Made by a program: the position numbers and the translations under genes. Under the pieces are notes generated by a model that saw nothing but the letters and a program-made list of their open reading frames with translations, was not told the origin of the DNA and did no database searches. A stretch of DNA of 896 nucleotides from NCBI RefSeq assembly GCF_003334305.1, contig NZ_QOWS01000065.1. One strand, given 5' to 3'. Positions 1 through 896 of the stretch are shown piece by piece. The DNA is from Escherichia coli. GTDB taxonomy: Bacteria > Pseudomonadota > Gammaproteobacteria > Enterobacterales > Enterobacteriaceae. Numbering within the stretch: the first letter of the stretch is position 1; each line of letters starts with the position of its first letter.

Positions 1-896
1 TTCGGGCGGACGCTGACTTTCCACCGGGCAGCTAAGGGTGACGTGGCGGGCGCGGTGACGGGGGTGACGGACGGCGCGGGCCGCCGTTTTCACCTGGCGC
101 TGACCACGCAGGCGCAGCGGGCGGAAGCCTTCCGTAAACAGCGCGCCACGTCTTTATCTTCCCCTGCCGGTCCCCGTTCTGCTTCCTCTTCTTCTGCTTT
201 CCCCGACACGCTGCCCGCCGGTACAGAATACGGTGCCGATAACGGTATCCGGCTGGAGGCGGTGTGGCTGACACACGACCCGGCATACCCGGATGAACAG
301 CCGACTGCGCCGCTGGCGCGCTACACGTACACGGCCAGCGGAGAACTGCGGGCGGTGTATGACCGCAGCGGAACGCAGGTGCGCGGGTTTACTTATGATG
401 CGGAGCACGCCGGGCGGATGGTGGCGCACCATTATGCGGGGAGGCCGGAGAGCTGCTACCGGTATGATGATACCGGTCGGGTGACGGAGCAGGTCAACCC
501 GGAGGGGCTGGACTACCGCTTTGAGTACGGAGAGAGCCGGGTAATCATCACGGACAGCCTGAACCGGCGGGAGGTGCTGTACACGGAAGGCGAGGGTGGC
601 CTGAAGCGGGTGGTGAAGAAGGAACATGCGGACGGGAGCATTACCCGCAGCGAGTATGATGAGGCGGGGAGGCTGAAGGCACAGACGGATGCGGCGGGGC
701 GGCGGACGGAGTACAGCCTGCATATGGCGTCGGGTGCGGTGACGGCGGTGACGGGGCCGGACGGCAGGACGGTGCGGTATGGCTATAACAGCCAGCGGCA
801 GGTGACGTCAGTGACGTACCCGGACGGGCTTCGCAGCAGCCGGGAGTATGATGAGAAGGGAAGGCTGACGGCGGAGACCTCGCGCAGCGGTGAGAC
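1..896 (+). CDS. Rhs-family YD-repeat protein, internal fragment of the conserved core (5' and 3' ends both outside the window)
   Basis: Seen in sequence: frame 1 is open across all 298 complete codons (1-894) with no stop. Translation begins FGRTLTFHRAAKGDVAGAVTGVTDGAGRRFHLALTTQAQRAEAF and ends YPDGLRSSREYDEKGRLTAETSRSGE. It contains repeated YD-repeat units (RYTYTASGELRAVYD, GFTYDAEHAGRMVAH, YRYDDTGRVTEQ, SEYDEAGRLKAQTD, VRYGYNSQRQVTSVT, REYDEKGRLTAET). Codons strongly favour G/C, especially G, at the third position (acg, gcg, cgg, ctg, gtg, gag). Established knowledge: these motifs and the conserved blocks DSLNRREVL, GLKRVVKKE and AQTDAAGRRTEY are characteristic of enterobacterial Rhs core proteins. 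No database search was run; the paralog or subfamily cannot be assigned from memory, so no gene symbol is given. Confidence 0.93.
148..207 (+). repeat. Low-complexity Ser/Pro-rich segment (TSLSSPAGPRSASSSSAFPD) encoded by a pyrimidine-rich tract, including an in-frame (tct)3 run at 187-195
   Basis: Seen in sequence: nt 151-205 are almost entirely C/T on the + strand (tctttatcttcccctgccggtccccgttctgcttcctcttcttctgctttcccc), in sharp contrast to the G-rich codons on either side. In frame 1 this gives a serine/proline-rich stretch with four consecutive Ser codons (tcc tct tct tct). Confidence 0.6.
454..495 (+). repeat. Canonical YD-repeat unit (CYRYDDTGRVTEQV)
   Basis: Frame 1 codons 152-165 match the Y-R-Y-D-x-x-G-R-(V/L) core of the YD-repeat consensus almost perfectly. 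Confidence 0.8.
646..687 (+). repeat. Canonical YD-repeat unit (RSEYDEAGRLKAQT)
   Basis: Frame 1 codons 216-229, E-Y-D-x-x-G-R-L-x-x-x-T-D motif. Its nucleotide sequence is an imperfect direct repeat of 838-879. Confidence 0.8.
838..879 (+). repeat. Canonical YD-repeat unit (SREYDEKGRLTAET)
   Basis: Frame 1 codons 280-293, E-Y-D-x-x-G-R-L motif. Shares gagtatgatgag...aggctga with 652-676. Confidence 0.8.

Follow-up and report, generated by a model that had tools for sequence, protein, structure and literature searches.

Two blocks of 25 nucleotides that lie 192 nt apart in an 896-nt stretch of Escherichia coli DNA (hereafter the window, meaning the whole stretch that was analyzed) are very probably the nucleotide trace of the peptide motif E-Y-D-E-x-G-R-L in two repeat units of an Rhs core, with neither a function at the DNA level nor a role in recombination. 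The feature is ordinary and already known. An earlier note on this DNA had proposed that the blocks could mediate the in-frame deletion or duplication of whole YD units and support recombination between Rhs paralogs, and it had reserved a purely codon-level reading for the case that no length polymorphism or recombination breakpoints map to them; neither was found at the blocks.

The window covers an internal part of an E. coli Rhs core gene that is linked to a T6SS. On the plus strand, frame 1 was translated without a stop codon along the entire 896 nt (positions 1–896), and in many complete E. coli genomes there are genes with the annotation ‘RHS element core protein’ to which the sequence is 99.8% identical, a match being present in 2,623 of the 5,426 complete genomes. 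It corresponds approximately to residues 216–514 of an intact 1,412-aa homolog in strain PSJ-36 (locus L004, 5356–9594), and the two are 98.2% identical over the window. The PSJ-36 homolog (5356–9591) scored 2,661.5 bits against the NCBIfam equivalog HMM NF041261 (RHS_core, cut-off 2,000 bits) over profile positions 1–1261, and the window alone scored 558 bits over positions 216–512. In addition, five matches to Pfam RHS_repeat (PF05593) were located within the window, and TIGR01643 (YD_repeat_2x) matched it with E = 6e−22 and the full PSJ-36 protein with E = 4e−48. The Rhs-associated core domain (TIGR03696, aa 1186–1263 of the homolog) and the PxxxxDPxGL motif, which reads PIQVIDPMGL in the translated homolog, are both situated beyond the window. 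At the level of sequence, the window resembles solved Rhs cocoons (Tse5, 8cp6, E = 8e−30; RhsA, 7q97, E = 6e−25; 8qjb and 8qjd, 7e−22) and, weakly, the YD shells of teneurins. When set beside E. coli Rhs core clade I (NF041261, a T6SS-associated polymorphic toxin), the sequence is near-identical and the YD repeats are shared, while the vgrG-rhs-immunity gene order, the Rhs-associated core domain and PIQVIDPMGL are common to the intact homolog; there is no substantive difference, the window being an internal fragment.

The genomic context of the gene was compared among strains. In PSJ-36, hcp, vgrG, rhs and a small ydcD-family ORF follow each other in a T6SS cluster, with rhs directly downstream of vgrG, and the same order is present in an O104:H4 genome (L005, NZ_CP064387.1). 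In some strains the closest full copies of the window gene are frameshifted pseudogenes, e.g., in strain 13KWH46 (L001), where the window-like gene is located in a two-copy rhs region beside pptA-yddH-nhoA and rhs is followed by dsORF-h1. The two rhs core copies of this strain (34–4088 and 8348–12609) lie ~4 kb apart, are both annotated as pseudogenes and are separated by IS3, IS1, and ISAs1 elements together with orphan rhs tips; they are 81% identical overall, with patches of up to 97%. On the minus strand of the window, an ORF of 189 codons (154–723) runs opposite to the Rhs frame, and its translation is Arg/Pro-rich, as is typical when coding DNA of high G+C content contains a spurious ORF.

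Direct comparison confirmed that block 1 (GAGTATGATGAGGCGGGGAGGCTGA, 652–676, plus strand) and block 2 (GAGTATGATGAGAAGGGAAGGCTGA, 844–868, plus strand) agree at 22 of 25 positions and lie 192 nt apart. Both are read in frame 1 and are translated as EYDEAGRL and EYDEKGRL, respectively, as the earlier note had stated, and the longest exact run that they share is 12 nt (GAGTATGATGAG). Block 1 is the YD motif of one Rhs repeat, inside RHS_repeat and YD_repeat_2x matches (aa 203–238), and block 2 is the YD motif three units downstream, inside an RHS_repeat match (aa 267–297); the reading of the blocks as Rhs YD units, with 64 codons amounting to about three of them, is supported by the translation as well as by the profile matches. 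The related copy that had been noticed at 460–471 was recovered as a weaker third copy at 460–484 on the plus strand (CGGTATGATGATACCGGTCGGGTGA, starting with CGGTATGATGAT), which lies 192 nt upstream of block 1, encodes RYDDTGRV and agrees with either block at 17 of 25 positions. Repeat detection returned these as a three-copy family with spacings of 192 and 192 nt. Around the blocks, an ungapped pair of imperfect 58-nt arms on the plus strand (629–686 and 821–878) is 72% identical, and the first arm covers the G-x-x-x-x-x-E-Y-D-E-x-G-R-L-x-A part of the repeat unit. Among the in-frame offsets of the window, 192 has the highest diagonal identity (0.379; mean 0.298, sd 0.023). No head-to-tail array was found: 192 nt separate one copy from the next, and identity along the diagonal between them is only 38%. 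This, together with the lack of copy-number variation in 67 homolog clusters and among the full-length places of 60 sampled records, sets the pair apart from phase-variable or contingency tandem repeats. Near-repeats were also observed elsewhere in the window, one of them equally strong (45–70 vs. 729–754, 22/25 at offset 684) and another at 21/25 (738–764 vs. 801–827, offset 63), both being built on GGTGACGG motifs (Val-Thr-Gly/Ala). The three best near-repeats of the analyzed core all start inside the window.

Whether such a match calls for an explanation depends on the null model that is used. Dinucleotide-preserving shuffles never reached 22/25 (0 of 300, maximum 20), by which chance from base composition alone was rejected. 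The appropriate null keeps the protein and shuffles its synonymous codons, and under this model the pair is expected to agree at ~19 of 25 positions, with P(≥ 22) = 0.028 for a pre-chosen pair. An agreement of at least 22/25 occurred somewhere in 4.3% of the synonymous-shuffled windows and in 22% of the shuffled whole cores; with the protein kept constant, the 22/25 match is unremarkable. In the real core, two diagonals reach 22/25 (shuffle mean 0.24), and the same codon is used at six of the seven shared residues (expected 3.2–3.6, P = 0.03–0.07). The DNA similarity is therefore essentially the repeated peptide plus the codon usage of the gene, with at most a small unexplained excess.

The nucleotide likeness was further followed across alleles and paralogs. 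In the O104:H4 gene, in L006b, L007, and L001a (the second rhs copy from the same genome region as L001b), as well as in rhsC of L008, blocks 1 and 2 agree at only 13–15 of 25 positions, with exact runs of 4–5 nt, and the Y/F-D-x-x-G-R-L peptide is retained in all of them. Block 2 reads AAATATGACCGTCAGGGCCGACTGG or GAATATGATGAA (continuing) in other alleles, again with 13–15/25 relative to block 1, and in the divergent paralogs L001a, L007, and rhsC, block 1 has the form ...GCG... and block 2 the form GAA...GAA. Alleles that are ≥ 95% identical to the window still have 21–22/25, and the identical 12-mer is specific to the allele group of the window. Because the pair falls to 13–15/25 in other alleles while the peptide motif is kept, selection appears to act on the peptide and not on the DNA. 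As regards the YD/RHS repeat family (PF05593, TIGR01643; Tc toxin BC subunits, teneurins), the blocks encode its Y-D-x-x-G-R-L core, but similarity between units at the nucleotide level is not among the properties defined for the family, and the alleles compared here do not conserve it.

The products that recombination between the blocks should leave behind were searched for using exact 200-nt products of a within-block crossover as queries, one for the deletion and one for the duplication, with a threshold (E ≤ 1e−57) chosen to be too strict for partial wild-type matches to pass. Neither the 192-nt deletion junction nor the 192-nt duplication junction had a match at this threshold in 5,426 complete E. 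coli genomes (0 for each). The search had power, as the wild-type 200-mer control was found at the same threshold at 3,450 places, distributed over 2,539 genomes and including 219 records at 90–95% identity. A degenerate 41-nt pattern for the deletion junction had no match in 241 million metagenome records, and a pattern that fits both the wild-type context of block 1 and the duplication junction was found on 21 metagenome contigs, all of which were collinear, with 0 duplication junctions among them. In 60 records sampled evenly down the complete-genome ranking, all full-length places span 891, 896, or 899 nt. Likewise, no 21- or 64-residue indel was detected in 67 homologous protein clusters that span both blocks (57–99% identity, including Shigella, Salmonella, Citrobacter, Kluyvera, and E. 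albertii), only three of the cluster representatives having small gaps of 1–10 residues. The proposed in-frame deletion or duplication of YD units thus found no counterpart in the data, and length variants of 192 nt, which the earlier note had suggested to look for among homologs, were absent from the 67 clusters, the 5,426 genomes and the metagenome contigs. What such an absence in finished genomes bounds is the standing frequency of recombinants, not the rate at which they form, and rare slippage events purged by selection would stay invisible there.

Rhs cores do vary in length, and none of the observed changes (linker indels, a 19-nt and a 587-nt deletion, and T6SS-cluster deletions) involves the two blocks. 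Indels among homologs concentrate at aa 25–80 of the window (73–240), i.e., in the Ser/Ala-rich stretch RATSLSSPAGPRSASSSSAFP and its surroundings, and the YD-repeat region downstream of this linker is length-invariant among homologs. The linker itself is of low complexity, is centered at ~142–204 and holds almost all homolog indels, in the form of gaps of 1–39 residues in many clusters. In the O104:H4 gene, 587 nt of the core were lost out of frame between two ACGGCAGAC 9-mers at gene position ~2298 (window-equivalent 1641–2228), outside the window and ~790 nt downstream of position 851. The downstream ACGGCAGAC copy falls within the Y-G-R-L codons of a YD motif, and the gene is annotated as frameshifted. 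Since identity to the PSJ-36 allele also changes at the junction, from 87% to 99.7%, this rhs gene may be a chimera that combines two rhs copies. A frameshifting deletion of 19 nt (741–759), flanked by GACGG direct repeats, was found in one genome (Z0117EC0040, NZ_CP098211.1, L009); it sits within a GGTGACGG-rich stretch and reflects either genuine slippage or an error in the assembly. Both deletions are out of frame, lie at repeats other than the 652/844 pair and produce pseudogenes. Furthermore, 5′-truncated copies (L002, L003) are associated with large T6SS-cluster deletions that end at window positions 579 and 817, and in several strains such a deletion has joined either a tssM remnant (position 579, at least four genomes) or a vasL remnant (position 817) directly to the 5′-truncated rhs. 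These truncated copies (H85–88 at 579, H89 at 817) were considered as repeat-mediated breakpoints and rejected, as their ends do not lie at the blocks.

Against this background, it is highly improbable that the blocks are working substrates of slippage or unequal exchange through which three YD units are lost or gained in frame and the size of the shell varies. The arrangement as such would suit this reading, given direct in-frame repeats at a distance of exactly 64 codons and a third, weaker copy 64 codons further upstream, and short-repeat deletions are known in Rhs cores from the ACGGCAGAC and GACGG cases. Slippage deletions between short repeats arise in bacteria by RecA-independent misalignment (Lovett-type studies), and misalignment between 12-nt direct repeats at a spacing of 192 nt is conceivable in principle; the two real cases in Rhs cores used 9-nt and 5-nt repeats, whereas the 652/844 pair is without a product among copies as numerous as the wild-type control found, in metagenome contigs and in the homolog clusters. 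Substrates of RecA-dependent recombination between repeats would be expected to share at least ~20–25 bp of uninterrupted homology. Recombination in vivo is undetectable below ~20 bp of contiguous homology (PMC10343044), and the blocks offer 12 nt. It is also very unlikely that the YD blocks are preferred crossover points between Rhs paralogs or alleles from which mosaic cores arise. Rhs cores are indeed mosaic: in an alignment of seven full-length alleles, the O104:H4 gene and L006b are 95–100% identical to the window lineage over 61–715, 50–80% over ~716–1000 and 92–97% thereafter, and block 2 falls inside this divergent patch, with block 1 located ~40 nt upstream of its left edge. However, the patch edges at ~716 and ~1000 coincide with neither block, and when L001a and L001b, the two paralogs of a single genome, are compared, no shared run within the blocks is longer than 8 nt, whereas exact tracts of 23–59 nt lie outside the blocks, most of them in the core's 3′ half. 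The suggestion that the blocks support recombination between Rhs paralogs is thus not borne out. The patch includes an identical island (761–795) and runs beyond the end of the window at 896, and its donor lineage is not among the sampled sequences. An alignment end at position 851, inside block 2, in an O104:H4 copy (H82) was rejected as a deletion endpoint, as a divergent mosaic patch begins there. The classical duplication and hotspot behavior of rhs involved nearly identical sequences within rhsA and rhsB (PMC3150448), and the unequal crossover of rhsA × rhsB (Capage & Hill 1979; Lin, Capage & Hill 1984, both cited by PMC3150448) resembles the present case in that the same gene family is concerned and direct repeats recombine; there, nearly identical sequences in two genes took part, and here the similarity is confined to 25 nt with 3 mismatches in one gene, and there is no product. 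The ‘rearrangement hotspot’ background given for the repeats accordingly holds as the historical term for Rhs elements, but the behavior behind it comes from rhsA × rhsB and not from YD units (PMC3150448).

It is unlikely that the slight identity excess has a historical origin, whether in a 64-codon super-repeat that was duplicated long ago or in micro gene conversion that occurred recently in this allele lineage. As the identity falls into the upper tail of what the codon-level null produces, a small extra share from unit ancestry or micro gene conversion is possible, and the three copies exactly 192 nt apart, the 12-mer that differs in L001a, L007, and rhsC, and an outstanding autocorrelation peak of the window protein at 64 aa (0.03 vs. 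−0.31 for the next best offset) would all agree with such a history. Yet registers of 64 residues share only 10–17 of 64 residues (17/64 for aa 412–475 vs. 476–539), mostly at motif positions, the excess is not significant over the whole core, and the few changes that would be needed are plausible by chance at a lineage divergence of 20–25%. The core as a whole moreover lacks a 64-residue periodicity, its top offsets being 21, 86, and 169, and the three-unit super-repeat was kept only as a low-confidence alternative. Still less credible, and extremely improbable, is the extension of this history in which micro gene conversion produced the identical 12-mer and the latter enables a lineage-specific, very rare in-frame switch of three beta-hairpin units (64 residues), the products of which are purged.

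In the favored reading, the blocks are the trace of a repeated peptide. E-Y-D-E-x-G-R-L is the ‘YD’ core of the ~21-residue Rhs repeat, used in two units that are 64 codons (three units) apart, and the repeated motif very probably belongs to the core that forms the shell of a T6SS-delivered Rhs toxin. Rhs repeats build a closed spiral beta-cocoon around the toxin (PMC8765631), and homology to solved Rhs proteins suggests that every YD repeat adds beta strands to such a cocoon, which is closed, wound as a spiral and has the C-terminal toxin inside. Since the YD repeats would supply the strands of this closed cocoon, selection is likely to bear on the peptide motif, the number of units and their spacing. 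The DNA likeness would then stem from seven identical residues in a gene whose codon usage is skewed, the same codon being used for six of the seven, and blocks so short and so interrupted (12 nt exact) would probably not recombine efficiently. Loss or gain of three units would presumably damage the cocoon and be selected against, and the invariant number and spacing of units fits a closed cocoon that is intolerant of strand loss or gain.

The echo between YD units hence needs no explanation at the DNA level and by itself matters little, being a clean negative, and the name ‘rearrangement hotspot’ should not be taken to imply instability inside the repeat array. As a by-product, a map of Rhs core variation was obtained, which comprises the lengths of the Ser/Ala-rich linker, mosaic patches and occasional out-of-frame microhomology deletions. 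The number and spacing of the YD units, by comparison, are invariant here in enterobacterial homologs down to 57% identity, which points to a tightly constrained closed shell.
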